Virus genome (UHGV): UHGV-0200293
Origin: a virus
Direction: 5' to 3' (one strand)
DNA: 24,650 bases
In this document: positions 1,228 through 21,705 of the stretch, piece by piece
Layout: each line of letters begins with the position of its first letter
Numbering within the stretch: position 1 is the first letter of the stretch
Notes under the pieces: model-generated
The model's input: the letters and a program-made list of their open reading frames with translations, nothing else
Told to the model about the DNA's origin: nothing
The model's database searches: none
Program-made: the position numbers and the translations under genes

Positions 1228-2914
1228 TAAAGTATATTTTATATCCTTTGTGATTGTGTTAGTTTTAGCTCTGTTAAATGTGCATGTATTCATGGGTAAT
1301 GAACAGAGCGTGTACTTTTGGGACTCCAAAAATTTTTGGATGCAATGGATGAGATACGCCGATCTGTTGTTCCAGAGCCCGTTGGACTGGGGCATGTCTG
1401 TTTATACAACAGTAACAAAGGATGACTATAACGCTCTGTCTACAGCATTATTATTTCCATTTAAATTTCTGCCCATCGACTCAAGAAGTGCTTACATATA
1501 CGCTATAACCATTACATATTTAATCCCTGTAATTTTATTGGCAACATTTATTTTATTAAAAATATTTGAAAACAAGTCAGCATTCTATGTAATAACAACA
1601 GCTATTCTTGTTGTATTATATACTCCATTCTGGAAACCAACTCTTAGAGGTTTGCCTGATGTTGTCGGACTGATACCTATTCTCTGTGTGATTTATTTTA
1701 CGATAAAAAATAACTTATCAAACAGAGTATTGTTATTTAAATCAGTTTTTCTCGGCATTCTGTTATGGATGCCATTTGCATTTAGAAGATGGTATATATT
1801 TACGGTCATCACCTTATATATAACCTTGCCTTTTTTTGTGGCTTATTATCATGATGTTAAGTTTAAGTTCGAGTTAAACAAAGCAAAAAACATATTGATT
1901 AACTTTTTCATCTCAGGAATAATCACTGTTGCCCTTGCATTATTAATTCAGAAAGAGTTAATAGCCAGAATAATATCTACAGATTACTCAACCATGTATT
2001 CAGCTTACCAATATGGATTCTCAAAATCACTTATGGTGATTTTTGGAGATATTGGTTTGTTTATGATGCCATTTTTTATATTTGGCATAATTAGTGCCAT
2101 TTCAAACATTAAAACAAAGCAAAGCGTTTTTGTTCTTTTCTCTGCTTTCTCGTTTGTTATCAGTGTACTATTATTTACTGGTACTCAGACACCCGGCATT
2201 CATCATGTTCTACCATTCTCTCTGTGGTTCTTGTTTGTTTCTATTTTTGGGCTAAATTACATATCATCATTATTCAAGAGCAAGGATGCCGAACATTCTT
2301 TACTTACCATAATTATGGTAGGCATGACGCTTATATCTGTTAGCACTTTTAACAAACCATTCCCTTCTTATAAAAATGGCTTCCATATATTTCCTGATGG
2401 ATTATACCCATATAAAGTTTCCAATTTCGACGAGTACAAAAGGCTGAGTGATAGACTTGTAGCCCTTACGAATAGTGGCGATAAAATATCTGTATTTAGC
2501 TCTAACTACATCTTAAATGATGATATGTTACTTACAATATCTAATTTCAAGCTTACCCCTCGTGTATTCCGTGTATCTCAAGTAGATTTGCGCGATAAAC
2601 TCAGGATGGAAGCTTTCTCCACAAAATATGTTGTGGTTACTAACCCCATACAGTTGCATTTAAACAAGGACGGACAAAGGGTCATCTCTTACCCTGCGAC
2701 CTTATTGTTAAATAGAAAAGGTATAGGTTCGGCATATAAAAAACTTGATGAAAAATATCAACTAAGTAAAGGGGTTTCTGCATATATCTATGAAAAGCAG
2801 AGGCCATTTACTGAGTCTGAGTCCCAAGATTTTATAAAAAACATAGTTAATATGTACCCTCAATGGAATGAACTATACAATAATGCTAAGACATTAAAAT
2901 TATTATCTGAATAA
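1214..2914 (+). CDS. gtrC: GtrC-type serotype-specific O-antigen glucosyltransferase, polytopic membrane protein
   Basis: 566 aa, many TM segments, overlaps gtrB end by 14 nt; third gene of the gtr operon. Confidence 0.65.
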   Translation: MTKNNKVYFISFVIVLVLALLNVHVFMGNEQSVYFWDSKNFWMQWMRYADLLFQSPLDWGMSVYTTVTKDDYNALSTALLFPFKFLPIDSRSAYIYAITITYLIPVILLATFILLKIFENKSAFYVITTAILVVLYTPFWKPTLRGLPDVVGLIPILCVIYFTIKNNLSNRVLLFKSVFLGILLWMPFAFRRWYIFTVITLYITLPFFVAYYHDVKFKFELNKAKNILINFFISGIITVALALLIQKELIARIISTDYSTMYSAYQYGFSKSLMVIFGDIGLFMMPFFIFGIISAISNIKTKQSVFVLFSAFSFVISVLLFTGTQTPGIHHVLPFSLWFLFVSIFGLNYISSLFKSKDAEHSLLTIIMVGMTLISVSTFNKPFPSYKNGFHIFPDGLYPYKVSNFDEYKRLSDRLVALTNSGDKISVFSSNYILNDDMLLTISNFKLTPRVFRVSQVDLRDKLRMEAFSTKYVVVTNPIQLHLNKDGQRVISYPATLLLNRKGIGSAYKKLDEKYQLSKGVSAYIYEKQRPFTESESQDFIKNIVNMYPQWNELYNNAKTLKLLSE

Positions 2915-2942
2915 AAACAGGCCGCGAACGCGGCCTGTTTTT
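2913..2942. terminator. Bidirectional intrinsic terminator between gtrC and the convergent phage late operon
   Basis: AAAAA-CAGGCCGCG-AA-CGCGGCCTG-TTTTT: GC hairpin flanked by A-run and T-run, placed between two convergent stop codons. Confidence 0.7.
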
Positions 2943-3750
2943 ACACTATCGTCCCAGTACCATTTTTCCATACTGATCCGGTCCATGTTATAGCGTAACC
3001 TAAAGTTGTATCTAATATCTGCGCACCTGCGTCAACAAGACCAAGGGCGGGCCTTCCTGCGGTAGTAAAACTTGGCAGGCGCGGAGGCTTTACAAAGTTA
3101 ACAGAGTTAGCTGTTCCAAAACATGTAATACTAGCTGTAGTTAACTGTACTGTATATGTATTAGACCAAGCCCAGCGAGTTGTTCCATCATAATATCCAT
3201 TTGCAATTTTGTTATCAAATGTAGCTGGAGTAACTTCAACACCAGTAACAGCGATTGAATCAGCCACTTCGAACACCACGGTGTCAGCGTCGTAAACTTT
3301 CCACTCACCAGAGAAAGTGGAAATGTCGTTGGTCCCGAAGTCTCCAGACCATGACGTGGTATTCATGTAGCCCTGAATGTAGGTGCCAGCGTTCTCACCA
3401 GCGAAGTCGAAGCGTACCCAAAGGTTAGGCTGCCGACCTGCCTGCACTTCATCAAAGATGTACTTCGACAGACGCCACGCGCCGATCTCGTTATCTTTAT
3501 CCGACTTGCGAAACTCACCTTCACCGGAGATCGTCAGATCCATGTTGTTGACCAGGTTCTCCACCAGCCCTTTAGCATCATCTGCTTCGGAGTTGATGGT
3601 GTTCATCGAATAGTCGATGCCCTTGGTCGTCATAGCGCCGAGACGCTTCCACTCGGAAAGCGCTGGCACTGCGTCGGGGCAGCCAAAGGCCATGCGTAGC
3701 ACAGTTACTTTCCCGATCAGCTTGCCAAAATCATTAGCACAGCCTTGCAT
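2941..3750 (-). CDS. Phage major tail (tube)-like protein with C-terminal extension; last gene of the late operon
   Basis: 269 aa; N-terminal region (LGAMTTKGIDYSMNT...DLTISGEGEF) resembles TP901-1-type tail tube proteins from memory; RBS GAGAGG 5 nt before ATG. Confidence 0.4.
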   Translation of the reverse strand: MQGCANDFGKLIGKVTVLRMAFGCPDAVPALSEWKRLGAMTTKGIDYSMNTINSEADDAKGLVENLVNNMDLTISGEGEFRKSDKDNEIGAWRLSKYIFDEVQAGRQPNLWVRFDFAGENAGTYIQGYMNTTSWSGDFGTNDISTFSGEWKVYDADTVVFEVADSIAVTGVEVTPATFDNKIANGYYDGTTRWAWSNTYTVQLTTASITCFGTANSVNFVKPPRLPSFTTAGRPALGLVDAGAQILDTTLGYAITWTGSVWKNGTGTIV

Positions 3751-13958: not shown

Positions 13959-14042
13959 GCCTTTTTCCTATTAAAATATTTCCATTGATGACCTATATTA
14001 AGAAGGAAGTAACCTGTCATCTATGCTACCAGGAGATTCTCG

Positions 14043-14231
14043 ATGGGTGAAAAAATTACTGAAGATGCTATTAAGCAAGCATATAGCGTTACCGTCATGC
14101 AACTTTTTAATGTCTATCTAAATTCGGCAAGCGATCCCAACGCATCAGCAAGATTTCAGGAAGGCCTTCGACTTGCTATACAAGTACGAGATGCCTGCAT
14201 GCAAATAGCCTCCCAAAACCATGCTCCATGA
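14043..14231 (+). CDS. Hypothetical small protein (62 aa), antisense to the late operon
   Basis: RBS AGGAGA 6 nt before ATG; located between terS and Rz. Confidence 0.4.
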   Translation: MGEKITEDAIKQAYSVTVMQLFNVYLNSASDPNASARFQEGLRLAIQVRDACMQIASQNHAP

Positions 14232-14292
14232 ATTTATTAGCGACCTATTCAAAAACTGCCATTACGATGGGTCTGCTCATGGTGATGGCAAT

Positions 14293-14315
14293 AAAAAACC
14301 GCCCGGAGGCGGTTT
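14293..14315. terminator. Intrinsic terminator, strong on minus strand
   Basis: AAAAAA-CCGCC-CGGA-GGCGG-TTT; minus-strand reading gives hairpin followed by UUUUUUAUUGCC. Confidence 0.6.
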
Positions 14316-14570
14316 AGGCCGAATTTATCTACTTCCCCGTTACCCACCACTATCAAACTCAACCGCAGATGAGCTTTGCAATGACCTAAAGTCTAGCCTA
14401 GTCGGCAGAATGCCTGCCTATTAAACATGCAGTCCGACCACTCTATAAAAATCGAAAAAATAACGTTCCGTTACAAGATGAGTGAAGTGTGATCCCGGAC
14501 AATAATTTTATAGCATCCTAGGCTATAAATTTATTACGGGAATCATCTCGCTCACATAGGAAGGCCTAAA

Positions 14571-14804
14571 ATGTCAGAAATAAACATAGAAAAGTTCAAA
14601 TTGGCGTTGGCAAATTTCAGCAGTGAACTATCAAATGCAGGGATTCCTTCAGAGGGCCTGAAAATTAGCATTGATTCTCCAGCACTAAGCCAGCCATTAC
14701 ATGAAGAAATAAGCGCAATGACTCCGATGAGGTTTCAATGTCATTGGGGACCTGGAATTGGCTTTACCTGCACATTTGGCACAGAAACCATGCCTGACAA
14801 ATAG
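14571..14804 (+). CDS. Hypothetical small protein (77 aa), antisense to the late operon
   Basis: RBS AGGAAGG 6 nt before ATG; palindrome TTTATAGC-N-GCTATAAA about 50 bp upstream. Confidence 0.4.
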   Translation: MSEINIEKFKLALANFSSELSNAGIPSEGLKISIDSPALSQPLHEEISAMTPMRFQCHWGPGIGFTCTFGTETMPDK

Positions 14805-14811
14805 CCATTGT

Positions 14812-15273
14812 TTATTGACATTGATTTTTAATGTAATTCTGCAAACCAGCAATTAGGATTTTGTTGGTTGCGATTCGTTCTCTGAGATTGAAATAATCCC
14901 GTTGAGCGGCGTCAGTAAGTCTGGCGCTGGCTGCATCATCCACGCCGGGGGCGGAGGTGGCTTTACGCACGCTGTCACAGGCTGCGGCGACGCGCAGCCG
15001 TTTAGCGCCAGAATCGACATCCCTACGCAAATCGCTAATGGTGTTTTGCGCATCGAATAACTCCTGTGTGTACTTCGCATCCAGCGCGGCAACATCGCGC
15101 TGCCGGGTTGTCATGTCGGTGATGGTGGCATTAGCCAGATTCAGCGCCTGAGTCTTCTCATCGCGCTGCTTCTTGTATTCTGTGGCGTTGTCGCGGTAGT
15201 GATTAACAGCCCAGCCAAGAGATACGATGATGCAGATGACCACAGCGATGATGGTTGCGGTTAACCTGCTCAT
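14812..15273 (-). CDS. Rz-like i-spanin
   Basis: N-terminal TM helix, coiled-coil periplasmic part; start overlaps endolysin stop. Confidence 0.7.
14853..15053 (-). CDS. Rz1-like o-spanin lipoprotein embedded in Rz
   Basis: Internal start [20 protein letters not shown] (lipobox) and Pro-rich body in the +1 frame of Rz. Confidence 0.6.
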
Positions 15274-15758
15274 TTCTCACCCCACAGGCAAACTTCGCGC
15301 TCAATCTCGCGGCGGGTCATCAGCCCTTTCCACTGCTTTCCGCCAGCGTAAGTCCAGCACCTTAACTGCTCGCATGCACCTTTGATATCGCCCTGGTTGA
15401 TTTTGTACAGGAGCGTTGAGGTCTTGAAGTTTCCAGCGCCAACGTTGTACGCGAAAGAGTAAATCGCTGCTCGTTGAGTTTCAGTAGTCGGCACTTTGAT
15501 GTGCGGATCAACCTGTGCGGCAGTTCGCGTTAAATCTTTCCTGGTTAGTGCGTCGCATTCTTTATCGGAGTATCGCTTTCCGGGAATGATGTCTGAACCT
15601 GTGTGTCCATCGCATACTGTAATTACACCAACGACGTCACGGTATGCGACATACTCCCTTCCCTCAACGCCATCCTTACCTGACAGCATGACTGTTGCGA
15701 TCGCAATCGCACCGCCACCGATGGAGGCAGCAATTTTATTTCGCAGGGTGCTGTTCAT
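15270..15758 (-). CDS. SAR endolysin (T4-lysozyme-type, phage 21 R-like)
   Basis: N-terminal signal-arrest-release segment [17 protein letters not shown] and C-terminal [21 protein letters not shown], close to phage 21 R as I recall it. Confidence 0.8.
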
Positions 15759-15871
15759 CAGATTTCCTTCGGTGCTTTCTGTCTGAGATCGGCGAGAACT
15801 TCGGCTGTAGCAGATGGGTTGCTTGAATCAGTCTTGTTCAGAATGTCCTGCAGTATCTTCGTGCGCTTCAT

Positions 15872-16030
15872 TTACTCACGCTTATTGAGCCTGTATGTCA
15901 GGACGCCGAGGATGATGCTGAACGCGACGCCAATGATGAAGCCCCAGTCCTGCAATGACAGGCTGGCAAAGAAAGCCGCAAGGCCAGCGCTGCCGTATGT
16001 CGCGTTGCTGTATCTTTCGTCCATCTTCAT
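15872..16030 (-). CDS. Pinholin-like class II holin (phage 21 S-like), 52 aa
   Basis: Met-Lys-Met dual start, two TM segments with Gly-rich first helix; not in ORF track (under 60 aa); RBS GAGGAG. Confidence 0.6.
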   Translation of the reverse strand: MKMDERYSNATYGSAGLAAFFASLSLQDWGFIIGVAFSIILGVLTYRLNKRE

Positions 16031-16212
16031 AGTCTCTCTCCTCGCGGTAAATGCGGGAGCTGTGTGTTGTAGGGTCAGGCCCTCGGGCTGGATTTAACAA
16101 CAAAGCGTATCGAGAATGATTCCCGAAACCTGAAATAGAAAAAAAGATTTTTTAATAGAGATTTAAGTTTTCTAGAAAATTGCCGATTTAAAAATCTTTC
16201 ACAGGAGGAAAC

Positions 16213-16473
16213 ATGCATCACATCTATCGCGTACAAGATACACAAGTGGCCAACTTTAGGCTTGAAGCACATAAGCACCACCCAGCACTTTCAATTCATC
16301 TTATCAGTACTGGAACCAGCATTAATGCAGGCAAATTCTTTAACTCTAATATTGAGGTTTTTGTTGCGATTTCTGACACCCAAACACTTGGCGCTTTGAA
16401 CTCAGATTTAATGCTAAACGCAGCAACAAAAAATAGCTTCACCCCGCTAGGAAGCGCAGAGTTTTATATTTGA
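16213..16473 (+). CDS. Hypothetical protein (86 aa), antisense gene between Q and holin
   Basis: RBS AGGAGG 4 nt before ATG; AT-rich; stop followed by a hairpin terminator. Confidence 0.45.
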   Translation: MHHIYRVQDTQVANFRLEAHKHHPALSIHLISTGTSINAGKFFNSNIEVFVAISDTQTLGALNSDLMLNAATKNSFTPLGSAEFYI

Positions 16474-16484
16474 GAAACAACAAT

Positions 16485-16515
16485 AAAAAAGCCCAAGGTG
16501 TTAACCTCGGGCTTT
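16485..16515. terminator. Hairpin terminator; candidate late terminator tR-prime on minus strand
   Basis: A6-GCCCAAGGTGTTAACCTCGGGC-TTT; minus-strand reading ends in UUUUUUAUUG, about 50 nt downstream of the candidate late promoter. Confidence 0.5.
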
Positions 16516-16567
16516 AATTCTTTGTGTCGACAATTAAAGCTATAACGACGATATCAGACTTACATAA

Positions 16568-16596
16568 AATATATGCGTTTCAGTTCGGTTTTGCAA
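16568..16596 (-). promoter_or_regulatory. Candidate sigma-70 late promoter (pR-prime analogue) at the 3' end of the Q-like gene
   Basis: Minus strand TTGCAA-17 nt-TATATT; position matches lambda pR-prime just after Q. Confidence 0.35.
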
Positions 16597-17263
16597 GACT
16601 TACATTCGAATTTGTCGCCTTTTGTTGTAAACGTGATCGCGTTACGGAGATAAGCGCATCATTATCGAGCCGCTTAAAGACATTACGCAGTGCCAACCAG
16701 TGAGGCAGGTACGTCTCTGTCCAGGTGGATTTAGCTACGCCCACCAGCTCAGCCAGCTTCTGGTACTCGTACGTCTCGCGGCCGCACAGCTCTGCTTTGA
16801 CGTCCTGCGCCGCCAACCAGATTAACGCCCGGAGTCGCTCCAGCGTTTTTCCGGCGATTTTCTTGCCAGCGAGTTGCGCCGTAAACTTATTCCATGCCCA
16901 GCGGGTTATGTCGACCTGATATTCAAACCGAGTATTTTCACTGTAGCTCCAGAGCAACTAGGCTTTTTGATGCTCGTCGAGCGACATTAGCGCCCGACGC
17001 CATGAAGCAGTGGAGTATTCAACCGGCTGCACCAGCGGGATATGCGATCCTTTGGCGTGTGATTGTTTTCCGGGGATCGGAGGGTTGTTCAGCGTTATCA
17101 GTTTTCCCGTAACTTCATCGCGTACACGCAACCTCTTGCGGGGGTAAGTATTCGTATCGAACTGCGCGTTCTCCAGCCAGGCCATTAACTGACCCTTTGT
17201 CGCTCCGCTCAGATCTGCCGTGGCCGCAATCAGTTGCTGGCGAATATAGGATAAATTTTTCAC
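16580..17263 (-). pseudogene. Late-gene regulator (Q-antiterminator-like by position) interrupted by an in-frame amber codon
   Basis: ORF-track ORFs 16958..17263 and 16580..16957 are contiguous and in frame, separated only by TAG (16958-16960); the distal 125 codons contain no ATG; GTG start with SD GGGGA. Confidence 0.5.
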
Positions 17264-17400
17264 TGATTTTCCCCTGCTTTCTGCTGAATACGGATGTAAT
17301 TGCGAAGGATGCGGTATGCCACCGGAAAAGATCCCCGGTAGCGATAAATGCGGAGACGCAGCCAGCGCAGACGGAGTATCTCGATCACTTCTGGTTTCAT
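17260..17400 (-). CDS. Small ORF (46 aa) translationally coupled to ninG
   Basis: ATG overlaps NinG stop (ATGA); its stop overlaps the Q-like GTG start. Confidence 0.3.
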   Translation of the reverse strand: MKPEVIEILRLRWLRLRIYRYRGSFPVAYRILRNYIRIQQKAGENQ

Positions 17401-17977
17401 GCAGCCTCCTGACGCTTCAACTCTTTGAGTTTTGCCCGGTACTCATCACGAATTCGGATGTAGTCTTCACGTTTCCATTTGGGTAATTCGTGCGGCCCCA
17501 TAAGGGCATCAAAGCGGGCCTGGCTGATTTTGGTGATCAGCGCCGGTCGATAGGCAATTAGGTTTCCTGACAGATGGTTATTGCAGGGGGCGCACTGGCG
17601 ATGACAGTTGTCTTCATTAAACCGCAACTCAGGGTTTGCGCCGGTCGTGCGGAAGTGACCGGCGTGATACTGCCCTTCATGGTGACGCCCACAACTGATG
17701 CATGGCAGATGCCTGTCACGGTAGCGGATGAACTCGTTAAAGGCCTGCTGGGCCTGCTTAATGAAGTAGCTGAGTGGTTTCACTGCCTGACAACGCTCAG
17801 CCAGACGCTTACGTTCGGCCTTCTCCCCCCCAAGTCGGCGCTTTTTATCTTTCCGTTGCTTCTCGGCTTTGGCTGCGTCATTCACGACTAGACGTACTGC
17901 TCATGACGGACCGGGTTAAACCACTCACGGCATACTGTGCATTTTCGGCGAGGGCGCTTTTTCTGATTATTAGCCAT
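17397..17977 (-). pseudogene. NinG/Rap-like recombination protein, frameshifted near the N-terminus
   Basis: Good RBS and ATG at 17975-17977 open a 29-codon frame (RRKCTVCREWFNP...) ending at TAG 17888-17890; the remaining 162 codons (KQAQQAFNEF...LPCISCG...) continue in a different frame from GTG 17885. Confidence 0.5.
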
Positions 17978-17979
17978 AA

Positions 17980-18186
17980 TCACCCCCATCCTTTTTGTCG
18001 GAAGGTTCTCGGCGTCCGCGCCGGACGTTCGCATTCTTGTAATTTCGCGCTGACTGTCCAGGTCAGGAAATCAGGATTGAGGCTCTTTTGGGCTCTGACG
18101 CCGCGAGACTGATAATCGGCAATCAGGCGCTCTGCCTGCTCGGTGGTGCATTCCGTGTGATGAAAATATGAATACTTCATCGCCAT
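17980..18186 (-). CDS. Small nin-region protein (68 aa)
   Basis: ATG overlaps upstream stop (TGATG); ORF-track ORF extends upstream into the neighbouring gene. Confidence 0.4.
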   Translation of the reverse strand: MAMKYSYFHHTECTTEQAERLIADYQSRGVRAQKSLNPDFLTWTVSAKLQECERPARTPRTFRQKGWG

Positions 18187-18785
18187 CACCCCGCAAAGCT
18201 CATAAGCTGGGCGGCGGCATTTTCGGCCTCTTCCCTGCTGTTGAAAGTGCGGGACAAGATCCAGCGCCACAGGACATCGAGTGCGGCCTTATAGAGGTGC
18301 TGGAATTCGGTTTCGTCCATACTGGCGAACGCGATGCTGCGAGGGTGTTTGCGGAGCGTGCCATCTGGTAACTGGATGGCGTCAAAGTGACCGGCCTCAA
18401 CAGTTACCCAGGCCCGGTATGCATCAAAGGATTTACACAGGCTGATTCCGTTCGTGATACGGCGACTGGCGATCTGCTCCAGATACTGCTCGGCAGCATC
18501 CAGCAGAGCGCTTTCATTGCCGCCGTATGAGGCAAGGAATCTGGCATAACCGTTAACGAGTTTGCGTTCATTCGAAGAAATAGCGCCGCCGGTTGGTTCC
18601 CAGTATTCGAACCCGAGATTCAGGAGCGCAAAGAAACGGCGATGAAATGCCGGATTGCGGACAAGCTTAAAGTCGGCAACCAGAACGGAGCCGAGCTTGC
18701 ATTTTGATTGCAGAAAATCACTGGTCTCCGGCGTAGCGGGGATCAGTATTCCGGTCGACTGCTTAATAAGATGTAATTGCGCCAT
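18186..18785 (-). CDS. Phage nin-region protein (DUF1367-like)
   Basis: 199 aa; family assignment from memory; position upstream of NinG. Confidence 0.4.
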   Translation of the reverse strand: MAQLHLIKQSTGILIPATPETSDFLQSKCKLGSVLVADFKLVRNPAFHRRFFALLNLGFEYWEPTGGAISSNERKLVNGYARFLASYGGNESALLDAAEQYLEQIASRRITNGISLCKSFDAYRAWVTVEAGHFDAIQLPDGTLRKHPRSIAFASMDETEFQHLYKAALDVLWRWILSRTFNSREEAENAAAQLMSFAG

Positions 18786-18822: not shown

Positions 18823-19071
18823 TCAGACCGTTGATTTCATATTATCAGAAGGTGGCGTTACCCGGTAGCCGAGACGGCGAATAAATTGCATAAAGCCATT
18901 GGGAGTAAAGACTTCTTCATCATCCAGCAAAGGCCGCATGGAAACCATGCCATTGACGCGATAGATAAGATGCCTGCCCGACGAAGGAAAGCTAAACACC
19001 ACGCAGCCGTCAGACCGTCTTACAATGTCATACCAGTTATCTTCTGACGTTTGCAAAGCTGAATTACTCAC
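18823..19071 (-). CDS. Hypothetical phage protein (82 aa), GTG start
   Basis: RBS AGGGAGA about 7 nt before GTG. Confidence 0.35.
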   Translation of the reverse strand: MSNSALQTSEDNWYDIVRRSDGCVVFSFPSSGRHLIYRVNGMVSMRPLLDDEEVFTPNGFMQFIRRLGYRVTPPSDNMKSTV

Positions 19072-19187: not shown

Positions 19188-19421
19188 TTAGTAAAACCAG
19201 TCGTCAGCGCTTTCCCAGGTATCCTGGAGAATCTCCTCAATGCACTGCTTATCCCCTTTTTCACCCCCCAGAATACTCAGGCCGTCAGCTCCGGCGCGAC
19301 GAACTGTCAGTTTCACATCTTCATAGCTCTGACTGAGTCTGCGTAACAGTTCAGCTTCTAATGCTAGCACTGCGCCATCAGGAAGTTTCTTAGTACGATC
19401 AATGGTTAATTCAATTTTCAT
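19188..19421 (-). CDS. DinI-family protein (prophage copy)
   Basis: MKIELTIDRTKKLPDGAVLALEAELLRR...DKQCIEEILQDTWESADDWF aligns along its length with E. coli DinI as I recall it. Confidence 0.75.
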   Translation of the reverse strand: MKIELTIDRTKKLPDGAVLALEAELLRRLSQSYEDVKLTVRRAGADGLSILGGEKGDKQCIEEILQDTWESADDWFY

Positions 19422-19441: not shown

Positions 19442-19457
19442 CTGTATATTTATACAG
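19442..19457. promoter_or_regulatory. LexA (SOS) box upstream of the dinI homologue
   Basis: CTGTATATTTATACAG fits CTGT-N8-ACAG; lies 21-36 nt upstream of the dinI-like ATG. Confidence 0.6.
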
Positions 19458-19530
19458 CACACCTATAAATCAGAATGATCAACGATTTAAGAGCACGAAT
19501 AGTTAACCTGCAGACACAAATTCCAGGCGT

Positions 19531-19552
19531 AAAAAAACCCGCCGAAGCGGGG
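19531..19552 (-). terminator. Intrinsic terminator (minus strand)
   Basis: Minus-strand RNA CCCCGC-UUCG-GCGGG followed by UUUUUUU. Confidence 0.55.
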
Positions 19553-19559
19553 TTAATCA

Positions 19560-19772
19560 TTAAGAGCATCGCGCCCTGGCTTTAATTTCTTGTCTTCCCA
19601 TACCGTGGTACCTGCGCTGATGACCACACATCCAACAGGAGCACAGACATGGTGTATGGTAGACCTTACCAAATGCAACTGGCCCACCAGAACACGCATT
19701 GCGGTAATGTCTGCGTTTTGATTTAAGCCTTGCAGCATGATGTCGGCGCAGAGCGCGCTTTTGTGATTTCAT
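19560..19772 (-). CDS. Small basic Cys/His-rich protein (70 aa), possibly zinc-binding
   Basis: RBS GGAG 7 nt before ATG; HTPCLCSCWMCGH cluster; an overlapping alternative frame (19553..19738) lacks an RBS. Confidence 0.3.
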   Translation of the reverse strand: MKSQKRALRRHHAARLKSKRRHYRNACSGGPVAFGKVYHTPCLCSCWMCGHQRRYHGMGRQEIKARARCS

Positions 19773-19913
19773 AACAGAACTCCGTAAATTTTATCGGAGC
19801 GGCCACACCTTCGCATAGCCGCCTGAACGGGAGCTCTGAATAGATTATTTTTCTCATTCTATTAATATGACATTAAAATATTCTGGACTAAAAAATAGCC
19901 TCATCGGGTTAGT

Positions 19914-20114
19914 TTACGGACGTGGATGCATCTTTCTCCATCGCTTCCAGAAACCATATTCTTGCCTAATATTGCTCTCGCAAGTAAGCCTTCCATACTT
20001 CGTTGTCGGTGGGTTAGCTATGATGCTCTCCAGCGATTCTCCAGCATCAAGGCGAGCATAAATTATGTAATCAGCCGCATTCGGATTTTTTGGCTCTGCC
20101 TTTCCAACACTCAT
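19914..20114 (-). CDS. Small putative HTH DNA-binding protein (66 aa), Ner/Cro-like?
   Basis: RBS AGGAGG 4 nt before internal ATG; ADYIIYARLDAGESLESIIA weakly resembles the Ner/Nlp HTH; first gene next to the divergent regulatory region. Confidence 0.3.
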   Translation of the reverse strand: MSVGKAEPKNPNAADYIIYARLDAGESLESIIANPPTTKYGRLTCESNIRQEYGFWKRWRKMHPRP

Positions 20115-20139
20115 GAATCCTCCTGACACTCAATGATAC

Positions 20140-20165
20140 GTGCTCTCTGATGTTATGGAGAGCAC
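20140..20165. promoter_or_regulatory. Inverted repeat GTGCTCTC-N10-GAGAGCAC in the 5' leader of the 66-aa gene
   Basis: Perfect 8-bp arms read from sequence. Confidence 0.4.
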
Positions 20166-20290
20166 ATCAGCGTAAACAAATATTATTAGGCCACGGTCTC
20201 TTTCAATACTAGGGCCTCGTCGAACGGCTGCGGCACAGCATTACCGCAGCGGGAAACCCTGCGTGGTAGATTTCGTGCAGTTGAAACATT

Positions 20291-20317
20291 AGTAATGAAG
20301 TCTGTCACTTCATTACT
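20291..20317. promoter_or_regulatory. Inverted repeat AGTAATGAAGT-CTGTC-ACTTCATTACT
   Basis: Perfect 11-bp arms, plus a third partial copy (GAAGTAATG) immediately downstream. Confidence 0.4.
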
Positions 20318-20365
20318 GAAGAAGTAATGTAACTATCATATTTTAAATATCTGAAAATAACTATA

Positions 20366-20385
20366 CAATTCAATAAATTGAATTG
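20366..20385. promoter_or_regulatory. 20-bp palindrome CAATTCAAT-AA-ATTGAATTG before the lipoprotein gene
   Basis: Perfect 9-bp arms, 20 bp upstream of the lipoprotein ATG. Confidence 0.4.
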
Positions 20386-20405
20386 CAGCATGACGGGAAA
20401 CATAT

Positions 20406-20810
20406 ATGATAAAATTTTTAATGTTGATTGTGGTGACATTAACCATTGCAGGTTGCTCCCCTCTTGCACCTACAGGCTGTCAGAAAAAAAACGCAATGGA
20501 ATCATGCGAATATAAGAGTTCAGGTAAAGTGTCGGATAAGGATATATATGGATGGTACTCATCCAGAATAAAAAAAGCTTTGGACGCAGCACTTACAGAG
20601 CCCCATGCCTGGAATGGTAAAAGATGTGACGCTCATCTGGATTTCAAAGTCGATGGCACCCTGCAAAATTTTATCGTGAAAGGTGGTGACAAAGATTATT
20701 GCGCTGCATTGCAAAAAGCTTCTGAAAGAGCGACATTCCCGGCGTTTACCGATCGGAGAGTTTACTTTAATATGGGTTCCGCAAGATGGAACTTCGAAGG
20801 TCAGCCATGA
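20406..20810 (+). CDS. Lipoprotein with TolA C-terminal (domain III)-like domain
   Basis: Signal peptide with lipobox LTIAGC; C-terminus GKRCDAHLDFKVDGTLQNFIVKGGDKDYCAALQKA...FPAF aligns with E. coli TolA GKTCTLRIKLAPDGMLLDIKPEGGDPALCQAALAAA...IPKPP (from memory). Confidence 0.6.
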   Translation: MIKFLMLIVVTLTIAGCSPLAPTGCQKKNAMESCEYKSSGKVSDKDIYGWYSSRIKKALDAALTEPHAWNGKRCDAHLDFKVDGTLQNFIVKGGDKDYCAALQKASERATFPAFTDRRVYFNMGSARWNFEGQP

Positions 20811-21093
20811 AAACTATGGTGCGCCGGGAGATCCCCGGCGTTCTCAACCTGAGAAAAAACCATTTTCACTTCTGCTGGTCAAACAGCTTCCTCAACATCC
20901 ACCAGCAGCAGGTTTTCCAGCTCTATAATCCGATTGGTGGTGTATTGCAGAAGTTGATCCATCATGCCTCCTGCTGCGGTGCTGCTGGCAGTGGCATCCA
21001 GTGAGTTGGCTTGCAATAAACACCACCACCATTCGGAAGTGATGCAAACCTAAACCATCCATCTGTTTCATTGTGCTCAATGTATCCGACCAT

Positions 21094-21381
21094 CTACTCT
21101 TTCTTATCAGCGCAGTAAACCTGAACATCAACATCGCGATCCGGCATCCGCTCGCTTACCGGAATCCATCTGCCTGGCAACTTGTAAGCGTCACTTACAG
21201 GTTCATCGTTCTGAGCATCACGCAGAGCACAAAAGACTTTATTACGCAATTCGTTGAACTCGTCAGAGCGAATAACCCTGCGCCAGTCCAGCGCATGAGC
21301 GTACAGGAAATCACTGGCGAGGTTAGCACCACGACCAGCGCGCAGGAATCGGCAACTAACGTTGATGCCGTTGCCGACGAT
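21094..21381 (-). pseudogene. Remnant of a DUF551-like phage early gene (no start codon, truncated)
   Basis: Minus-frame translation ...LDWRRVIRSDEFNELRNKVFCALRDAQNDEPVSDAYKLPGRWIPVSERMPDRDVDVQVYCADKKE* is open without any usable start; W-I-x-V-S-E-R-M-P motif resembles DUF551. Confidence 0.3.
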
Positions 21382-21705
21382 CTACGCGATCGCATTGATA
21401 CAGCAAGCTCCGTTGTTCAGGCAAAAGCCATTCGCGTGGATATCGAATCACAGAAAGTGTTGCTGGGAACCGCCCTGTACACCGAACTGAAAAATAAGGC
21501 GGTGAAACGTTACTACCAGGTCGATGCGCAGAACAAGGTCGGGGCTGTGATCAACTCACTTCCAAATCCCGGCGAACCGGAAGCCACAGCGATGTTCGCT
21601 AAAGCTGAAAGTACGCTCACCGCAGCCAAACGTCATCTGGGCGATGAACTGTATGACCAGTTCCGCATCACCCTGGACGACATGAAACCGGAATACGTGG
21701 GCTAA
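21295..21705 (+). CDS. Hypothetical early-region protein (about 137 aa, start uncertain)
   Basis: 3' part of ORF-track ORF 21073..21705; upstream part overlaps the minus-strand remnant; weak RBS at the ATG. Confidence 0.3.
   Translation: MSVQEITGEVSTTTSAQESATNVDAVADDLRDRIDTASSVVQAKAIRVDIESQKVLLGTALYTELKNKAVKRYYQVDAQNKVGAVINSLPNPGEPEATAMFAKAESTLTAAKRHLGDELYDQFRITLDDMKPEYVG

Follow-up and report, generated by a model that had tools for sequence, protein, structure and literature searches.

Three palindromes at a probable joint of two accessory-gene cassettes in a defective Gifsy-like prophage of Citrobacter koseri

RESULTS

The window analyzed here, the whole stretch of 24,650 nucleotides (24.65 kb), is a lambdoid, Gifsy-like prophage integrated beside phoP/phoQ, and exact matches to its proteins carry the name Citrobacter koseri in the source databases. 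The genes on the minus strand include a gene for a 66-aa protein, a 70-aa open reading frame (ORF), dinI, an 82-aa ORF, a DUF1367 gene and NinG. Those on the plus strand encode a lipoprotein with a TolA C-terminal domain, a RecT relic, DUF4060, excisionase and integrase. As described in an earlier, sequence-only reading of this DNA, the 66-aa gene and the TolA-like lipoprotein gene flank the 291-bp stretch at 20115-20405, here called the spacer (Table 1). That reading took the spacer for a divergent control region with three perfect palindromes, lying where a lambdoid phage would have its cI/cro switch.

TABLE 1 Features of the spacer and its surroundings, with the share of variable sites by segment
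Feature	Position	Strand	Sequence or property	Basis
66-aa gene	19914-20114	-	function not assigned; AGGAGG ribosome-binding site (RBS) at 20119-20124	ORF
Palindrome 1	20140-20165	.	GTGCTCTC-N10-GAGAGCAC	sequence reading and repeat finder
Promoter-like site of 66-aa gene	20179..20206	-	TTGAAA-16-AATATT	consensus scan
Relic, 3' end of phage C5 DNA-cytosine methyltransferase gene	20207..20263	-	19 codons encoding RRVSRCGNAVPQPFDEALV	tblastn
Palindrome 2	20291-20317	.	AGTAATGAAGT-N5-ACTTCATTACT	sequence reading and repeat finder
Third partial copy (half-site) beside palindrome 2	20323-20329		AGTAATG	
Promoter-like site of lipoprotein cassette	20342..20369	+	TTTAAA-16-TACAAT; predicted start near 20376	consensus scan
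Palindrome 3	20366-20385	.	CAATTCAAT-AA-ATTGAATTG	sequence reading and repeat finder
Lipoprotein with TolA C-terminal domain, cargo gene of cassette	20406..20810	+	phrog_5772	Pfam PF06519, E 9e-11
G+C-rich hairpin, weak terminator candidate	20821..20845	+	UUCUC tail; directly after lipoprotein stop codon; ends conserved core	
Deletion junction	21264..21270	.	L043 nin genes / Gifsy-2 recT	homology ends/starts
Segment: methyltransferase relic	20221-20276		17.9% variable sites, most variable part of block	nine type-A haplotypes
Segment: TTGAAACAT, palindrome 2, third half-site, -35, -10, palindrome 3	20277-20385		3.7% variable sites	nine type-A haplotypes
Segment: 5' UTR	20386-20405		20% variable sites	nine type-A haplotypes
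Segment: lipoprotein CDS			3.0% variable sites	nine type-A haplotypes
Segment: hairpin after stop codon	20811-20860		2.0% variable sites	nine type-A haplotypes
Segment	20861-20964		18.3% variable sites	nine type-A haplotypes

In Gifsy-2, the outer genes and their order are the same, and approximately 8 kb lie between dinI and DUF4060. That stretch of Gifsy-2 holds the repressor (cI), a Cro analogue, a cII analogue, O, a DnaC-like gene (P), exonuclease VIII (exo) and RecT; of these, cI/cro, O, P, exo and an intact recT are missing from the window. The window is homologous to nin-region genes of a complete relative, phage L043, up to position 21264 and to the 3' end of Gifsy-2 recT from 21270 onward; residues 65-210 of a 210-aa ORF match the C-terminus of the RecT-like family phrog_561. 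Since nin homology stops and recT homology begins there, the immunity, replication and recombination modules were lost by a deletion at 21264|21270, a junction pinned to within approximately 5 bp and lying approximately 900 bp to the right of the spacer. The point at which gene orientation diverges in the window is a product of this deletion. In agreement with the earlier statement that no cI-like repressor is present, neither flank of the spacer encodes one, and the immunity module is deleted. The prophage of the window is a defective, decaying Gifsy-like prophage of C. koseri.

Gifsy prophages have a LexA-controlled dinI-antirepressor-irsA operon (Lemire et al. 2011, PMC3121763). The window has, immediately downstream of the 66-aa gene's cassette, a perfect LexA box (19442-19457), dinI, a small ORF with a GTG start and an irsA-like DUF1367 gene, in the same order as in that report. 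However, this module lies outside the spacer, in which the best match to a LexA box has 8 mismatches. No sequence similarity was found between the 82-aa ORF and the Gifsy-2 ORF at the same position. A LexA or antirepressor role for the 66-aa gene was rejected, as the sole LexA box is the one before dinI; the antirepressor idea also fails because the Gifsy antirepressor sits downstream of dinI, not upstream.

Sequence reading and a repeat finder confirmed the three perfect inverted repeats in the spacer, with arms that are 100% complementary in each. When only perfect inverted repeats with arms of 8 or more and a spacer no longer than 12 were counted, the whole window was found to contain 17, compared with 5.05 +/- 2.0 in shuffled sequences. 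Three of the 17 fall within 20115-20405, which is the maximum for any 291-bp window. Shuffling the 291 bp 20,000 times with dinucleotides preserved gave three such repeats only once and an arm of at least 11 in 12 cases. The clustering of three palindromes in 291 bp is therefore far beyond chance.

The three palindromes have no half-site in common, and each is single-copy within the 24.65-kb window. Further copies of palindrome 2 were found neither in the window nor in complete phage L043. In an exact scan, one unrelated metagenome contig of low G+C content had the arms of palindrome 2 around another loop, which we treated as a coincidence. Searches of the literature with the palindrome strings returned primers and unrelated sequences only, and similarity searches with the spacer against phages, in near and distant mode, and against plasmids gave no match. 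Covariance models from Rfam detected nothing within 20115-20405 at the gathering threshold or at E <= 10; the sole Rfam match of the whole window, isrJ, lies outside the spacer. The terminator scan called no intrinsic-terminator-like site at palindrome 1, 2 or 3, which bears out the earlier remark that none is followed by a U-run. On the minus strand, a T-rich stretch follows palindrome 3, but the A+T-rich stem fails the terminator criteria.

The spacer had been described as intergenic. This holds for most of it, with the exception of 20207-20263, where tblastn revealed the remains of a methyltransferase gene on the minus strand. Fourteen of the 19 codons of this relic encode residues identical to those at positions 591-609 of the 624-residue methyltransferase of prophage L036 (E 3e-6, tblastn, small search), and in L036 this 624-aa DNA cytosine methyltransferase precedes the 66-aa gene. 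The relic was pointed to by a marginal match, the only one obtained by blastn of the spacer against E. coli genomes, which lies within an annotated DNA cytosine methyltransferase. No unusual RNA fold was found in the relic. The spacer is made up of four parts: the RBS of the 66-aa gene, a lineage-specific leader with palindrome 1, the 19-codon relic, and the upstream region of the lipoprotein gene with palindromes 2 and 3.

The 66-aa protein, which had been credited with a weak Ner/Cro-like helix-turn-helix (HTH) signature, was predicted to fold as a three-helix, HTH-like bundle. Sequence profiles from Pfam, NCBIfam, PHROGs and the PDB placed it in no family, Ner, Cro and HTH_3 included, and Foldseek against the PDB gave no significant match; the proposed signature was not borne out by these searches. 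Approximately 30 homologues with 68-97% identity were found in Citrobacter, Salmonella, Klebsiella, Kluyvera, Atlantibacter and Pluralibacter, and their third helix is nearly invariant. In complete prophages, the homologues lie inside the rightward operon, just upstream of dinI and approximately 5 kb from the cI/cro pair; in other genomes, they lie within non-phage islands. DNA homology to the homologues of Citrobacter prophages comprises the coding region, extends no further than the RBS and stops at 20133. No comparable inverted repeat was found upstream of the homologues in the six other contexts examined, and autoregulation conserved across the homologues was rejected on these grounds.

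Palindrome 1 lies past this stop, beginning 7 bp beyond the breakpoint, and is interleaved with a second repeat, CTGATGT/ACATCAG (20147-20153 and 20164-20170). Outside the window, the leader that contains it is present only in a very small prophage relic of Enterobacter oligotrophicus (L039), and the homology stops precisely at the -35-like TTGAAA (20207). In the E. oligotrophicus relic the gene is frameshifted, and both of the two leader substitutions fall inside the dyads of palindrome 1, with the loss of both dyads. The consensus scan predicted an mRNA start for the 66-aa gene near 20172, in which case the transcript would carry palindrome 1 at its 5' end. These comparisons assign palindrome 1 to the lineage-specific leader of the 66-aa gene itself, in which it would most likely form a 5'-end stem-loop of the mRNA or, otherwise, a promoter-proximal operator.

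On the other side of the methyltransferase relic, the lipoprotein gene product also matched NCBIfam TolA models, below the model cut-offs. The phage-borne lipoproteins form a tight clade with 96-99% identity among the loci compared and are found in Citrobacter, mostly in C. koseri prophages. Beyond this clade, the most similar proteins share 73% identity or less and occur in Pantoea, Enterobacter, Serratia, Pluralibacter and related genomes, and the DNA upstream of their genes is unrelated. In complete or larger prophages, the lipoprotein gene always runs opposite to the rightward operon, with nin-region genes on one side and dinI on the other. Its upstream region comes in two types. The type-A block (20221-20405, approximately, in the window) occurs with three different left neighbours, namely the 66-aa gene (in the lineage of the window only), a HolE/theta-like gene, and a gene on the same strand for a 126-aa secreted protein; it therefore belongs to the lipoprotein gene and not to the 66-aa gene. 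The type-B region is found together with a divergent TolA-like paralogue; palindrome 2 is entirely missing from it, and the left arm of palindrome 3 is disrupted. As type B drives a lipoprotein that is 96% identical, palindromes 2 and 3 are dispensable for the lipoprotein gene. The spacer thus joins two cassettes that are mobile independently of each other and also contains a gene relic; it is not a co-evolved divergent control region.

Morons are independent accessory transcription units in prophages, under the definition drawn up for HK97 gene 15 and reviewed in "The moron comes of age" (PMC3594210). The lipoprotein cassette (approximately 20264-20860) resembles them in its patchy distribution among related phages: it is absent from Gifsy-2 and L036-type prophages, present in C. 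koseri prophages, and inserted at a gene boundary. It further resembles them in composition, with a G+C content of 33-40% (0.33-0.40 over 20200-20700) compared with 0.47-0.58 in the flanking phage genes, and in its orientation against the flanking operon. A promoter-like site lies upstream and a conserved hairpin downstream, and the cassette is intact in a decaying prophage. The 60-nt stretch with this hairpin (20811-20870) folds at -22.7 kcal/mol (z -4.6), and the terminator scan made no call there. The cassette differs from described morons in that its promoter and terminator are predicted only, the UUCUC tail of the hairpin being weak, and in the presence of two long perfect dyads upstream and of a second upstream type. 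Collectively, these features fit the definition of a moron, with a candidate promoter and a candidate terminator.

The promoter scan called 5 sites, compared with 4.0 +/- 2.0 in shuffled sequences, and thus no excess. Because every neighbour of the lipoprotein gene in complete phages is encoded on the opposite strand, we infer that the gene needs a promoter of its own. At its promoter-like site, the G+C content falls to 33%, compared with approximately 50% around it. Relative to the predicted start, palindrome 3 spans about -11 to +9 and includes the final 4 bases of the predicted -10, the centre of palindrome 2 lies near -72, and the third half-site lies near -50. Palindrome 2 and the third half-site together present three half-sites in alternating orientation at 16-bp spacing.

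Variation in this region was compared across nine type-A haplotypes (Table 1). Palindrome 2 is perfect in all of them but one, which has a C to A change at 20316. The inner 18 bp of palindrome 3 are invariant, and its outermost G is replaced by T in one lineage (20385). Neither of these two arm substitutions is accompanied by a compensatory change, and the 109-bp core at 20277-20385 has 4 variable sites in all. The core is less variable than the adjacent non-coding segments (Fisher p 0.0017) and than the 5' UTR at 20386-20405 alone (3.7% versus 20%, p 0.02). The comparison with third codon positions gave 4/109 versus 6/135 variable sites (p 1.0). The contrast with adjacent non-coding DNA suggests selection on the core, and the low variability of the palindrome block may instead reflect recent common ancestry of the cassette core.

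The earlier proposal to compare the palindromes with known operators (Fur, Ner and phage repressors) was followed with 17 factor consensus sequences, and in the spacer no whole palindrome was matched by any of them. The best matches had 8/19 mismatches for Fur, 8/20 for LexA, 8/22 for CRP and 7/17 for lambda OR, and 5/14, 6/16 and 3/11 for the 434, P22 and Mu Ner operators; likewise, the palindromes gave no consensus match for FNR, PhoP, CpxR, ArgR, TyrR or MetJ. The centre of palindrome 3 reads TCAATAAATT and ATTCAATAAATTG, one mismatch each from the H-NS motif, tCGATAAATT (TCGATAAATT), and the IHF core, WATCAANNNNTTR. These are near-matches to low-information motifs out of the 17 consensus sequences tried. 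In the immunity region of complete phage L043, the half-sites of the palindromes were absent, and phage-repressor operators were rejected as candidates for this reason. A phage repressor is accordingly an unlikely reader of the palindromes.

The sequence-only reading had also held that the palindromes look like protein-binding operators. Part of this stands: the palindromes are non-random, they are not terminators, each lies beside a promoter-like site, and palindromes 2 and 3 fall in the 109-bp block whose variability is as low as that of the coding sequence. The anatomy, cassette boundaries, deletion junction, non-random clustering and low variability are observed, whereas the promoter positions, protein binding and the identity of any binding protein are inferred. 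An operator-like function, at least of palindromes 2 and 3, is a reasonable reading of their placement and conservation.

DISCUSSION

We consider it probable that the 291-bp spacer is a mosaic joint of two accessory-gene cassettes in the early-right ("nin") region of a defective Gifsy-like C. koseri prophage, with palindromes 2 and 3 as operator-like elements at a moron promoter, and not an immunity switch. Two small accessory cassettes would abut in the spacer, with the methyltransferase relic left between them. The lipoprotein cassette would be a moron that is antisense to the phage operon and hence carries its own promoter. Palindrome 3, lying over the predicted -10 and start, could be a repressor-type, promoter-occluding operator or a site for a nucleoid protein of the H-NS/IHF kind. 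Palindrome 2 and the third half-site, at about -72 to -50, would form an upstream regulatory site. The factor that reads palindromes 2 and 3 would be encoded by the host rather than by the phage.

The spacer does resemble the cI/cro region of lambdoid phages with its OR and OL operators: it is A+T-rich, it is flanked by divergent small genes, and it contains dyads and promoter-like hexamers. On the first reading of this DNA, the spacer would be a divergent switch of the cI/cro type or the remnant of one, and the 66-aa HTH-like protein, as a Cro/Ner-like regulator, would bind the palindromes and govern both promoters. In the deleted prophage, the spacer does sit where the leftward and rightward gene sets diverge, and palindrome 1 lies between the promoter-like site and the RBS of the 66-aa gene, as that reading would have it. 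However, the divergence point is a by-product of the deletion, and in complete relatives the 66-aa gene is found mid-operon next to dinI. Whereas lambdoid immunity regions, including that of Gifsy-2 with its STM1012 repressor and STM1015.1n Cro analogue, have a repressor gene and a cro-like gene as flanks, the flanks here encode a lipoprotein and the 66-aa protein. Immunity switches have repeated copies of one operator consensus and a second operator region, but the dyads of the spacer are three unrelated and unique sequences that are absent from the immunity region of L043. Such switches lie between the leftward and rightward early operons, whereas intact relatives have the homologous DNA inside the rightward operon, between the nin genes and dinI; in Gifsy-2 and the complete C. 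koseri relatives, cI/cro lies approximately 5 kb from the homologous genes, and it is that true immunity region, kilobases away, which is deleted in the window. Further, palindromes 2 and 3 and their lipoprotein cassette are also found where the 66-aa gene is missing, and the third helix of the 66-aa homologues is nearly invariant, yet they have no conserved upstream dyad. A switch or its remnant is thus very unlikely indeed.

Two other explanations concern the palindromes themselves. They may act as RNA stem-loops, palindrome 1 as a 5'-terminal stabilising hairpin, and palindromes 2 and 3 within a longer lipoprotein 5' UTR that starts upstream of 20291 or as processing or pause sites in antisense read-through of the early-right operon. 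The folds are more stable than those of shuffled sequences for palindrome 2 (-14.3 kcal/mol, z -3.3) and, on the minus strand, for palindromes 1 (-14.6 kcal/mol, z -3.9) and 3 (-8.7 kcal/mol, z -2.7). Mutually exclusive hairpins could form both in palindrome 2 with the third half-site and in palindrome 1 with its interleaved repeat, and in complete phages the region would be transcribed antisense from the early-right operon. However, Rfam gave no match even at E <= 10, the two arm substitutions are uncompensated, the stem of palindrome 3 is short, A+U-rich and only -6.0 kcal/mol on the plus strand, and transcription from the best promoter-like site would start inside palindrome 3 and leave palindrome 2 untranscribed on that strand. 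We regard an RNA role as unlikely. The palindromes could also have no function: illegitimate recombination or the capture of sequence at the edges of cassettes would have produced them, and a young cassette with little divergence would have carried them with it. Consistent with such an origin, palindrome 1 begins only 7 bp past a homology breakpoint and palindrome 2 lies approximately 25 bp from the junction with the methyltransferase relic; the block and third codon positions are alike in variability, type-B cassettes do without palindromes 2 and 3, and the E. oligotrophicus relic has lost both dyads of palindrome 1. Against it stand the occurrence of three perfect dyads per 291 bp in 1 of 20,000 shuffles, the greater variability of the adjoining 5' UTR than of the palindrome block, and the overlap of palindrome 3 with the -10-like hexamer, a classical operator position. 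The absence of any function is, in our estimate, improbable.

The reading of the spacer as a mosaic joint with operator-like palindromes finds a further parallel in the H-NS and IHF sites of acquired A+T-rich promoters, as the near-matches at the centre of palindrome 3 coincide with the regional minimum in G+C content. However, the perfect 9-bp dyad symmetry of palindrome 3 is required by neither protein.

The spacer is an ordinary but well-resolved case of prophage mosaicism, and its main value is corrective: a deletion that joins accessory cassettes and leftward genes can mimic an immunity switch in raw sequence. Comparison with intact relatives divides the 291 bp into an RBS, a leader, a methyltransferase relic and the upstream region of a cassette. 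The gene for the TolA-domain lipoprotein is widespread in C. koseri prophages and is intact in a decaying one; if the lipoprotein is a decoy for the Tol pathway, the way it is regulated would be of some interest to the study of how phages and colicins are excluded. It is conceivable, though quite doubtful, that palindromes 2 and 3 are operators for an undescribed regulator of C. koseri, or for the 66-aa protein as a trans-acting factor, and that this regulator turns on a periplasmic TolA-domain "decoy" lipoprotein in certain conditions, so that the lysogen is conditionally protected against Tol-dependent phages and colicins. Were this the case, a grounded prophage would have been kept for a regulated function in envelope defence.

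A decaying prophage in C. koseri

The deletion that removed the immunity, replication and recombination modules of the prophage was placed to ~5 bp, at 21264-21270, where gene remnants from the nin region abut the junction. Copies of the defective prophage carried by different strains of C. koseri (loci L002-L008) were compared with the window over about 14000-17500. The same deletion was common to these copies, and the Q/lysis region was where they diverged, with two types of antiterminator gene, with IS insertions and, in L003, with structural genes lost. Across the copies, the stretch at 19500-21100 was 99.75-100% identical. Since the deletion is common to the copies while the Q/lysis region differs, the element is vertically inherited and still decaying.

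Features of the window, with positions and strands
Feature	Position	Strand	Remarks
Three ORFs, 88, 318 and 566 aa	5-2914	+	Left end
Perfect inverted repeat, 15-bp arms	2912-2943		End of left-end module
isrJ	16488-16564	-	Between lysis and Q regions
DUF1367 (irsA-like) gene	18186-18785	-	Next after 82-aa ORF
82-aa ORF	18823-19071	-	GTG start; next after dinI
dinI	19188-19421	-	Downstream of LexA box
LexA box CTGTATATTTATACAG	19442-19457		Perfect match; immediately upstream of dinI
Intrinsic terminator, CCCGCTTCGGCGGG + T7	19538-19551	-	Strong; downstream of 70-aa ORF
70-aa ORF	19560-19772	-	Basic, Cys/His-rich; phrog_4499, a family without assigned function
Lipoprotein with TolA C-terminal domain	20406-20810	+	Also in prophage loci L121-L125 and L003
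DUF551-like and MazG-like nin-region gene remnants	20962-21249	-	Abut deletion junction
210-aa ORF with C-terminal third of RecT-like gene	21073-21705	+	Abuts nin-region remnants

The dinI module and the adjacent units

In Gifsy prophages, dinI, an antirepressor gene and irsA form an operon under LexA control (PMC3121763). The order of the LexA box, dinI, the 82-aa ORF and the DUF1367 gene in the window is that of the Gifsy operon (PMC3121763), and no sequence similarity was found between the 82-aa ORF and the Gifsy-2 ORF in the equivalent position. Because the Gifsy-type order is kept, the prophage may still make a trans-acting antirepressor despite the loss of its own repressor. The predicted terminator downstream of the 70-aa ORF marks the boundary between the unit of the 66-aa gene and the LexA-controlled dinI promoter.

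The lipoprotein with the TolA C-terminal domain is divergently paired with a second TolA-like gene in some prophages, and GCA_032192095.1 carries two copies of the cassette, each in a different prophage (L003 and L123). A candidate role for this lipoprotein could be that of a periplasmic decoy against Tol-dependent phages or colicins.

Upstream of the lipoprotein gene lies palindrome 2, a perfect inverted repeat. An exact scan of metagenome contigs for this palindrome gave a sole match, at 3097-3123 of contig L040, with identical 11-bp arms (AGTAATGAAGT / ACTTCATTACT) and a different 5-nt loop. The contig is low in G+C and its context is unrelated to the window; the match was treated as coincidence.

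Other elements in the window

The Hfq-binding sRNA isrJ (Rfam RF01393) was matched over its full length, with 55.5 bits vs a gathering score of 37. At the left end, the 318- and 566-aa ORFs equal in length and order genes of the related locus L003, in which the gene order runs from a GtrA-family member through a member of glycosyltransferase family 2 to a 566-aa gene. This ORF group looks like an O-antigen-modifying conversion module. The inverted repeat that marks the end of the module is the longest perfect one in the window.
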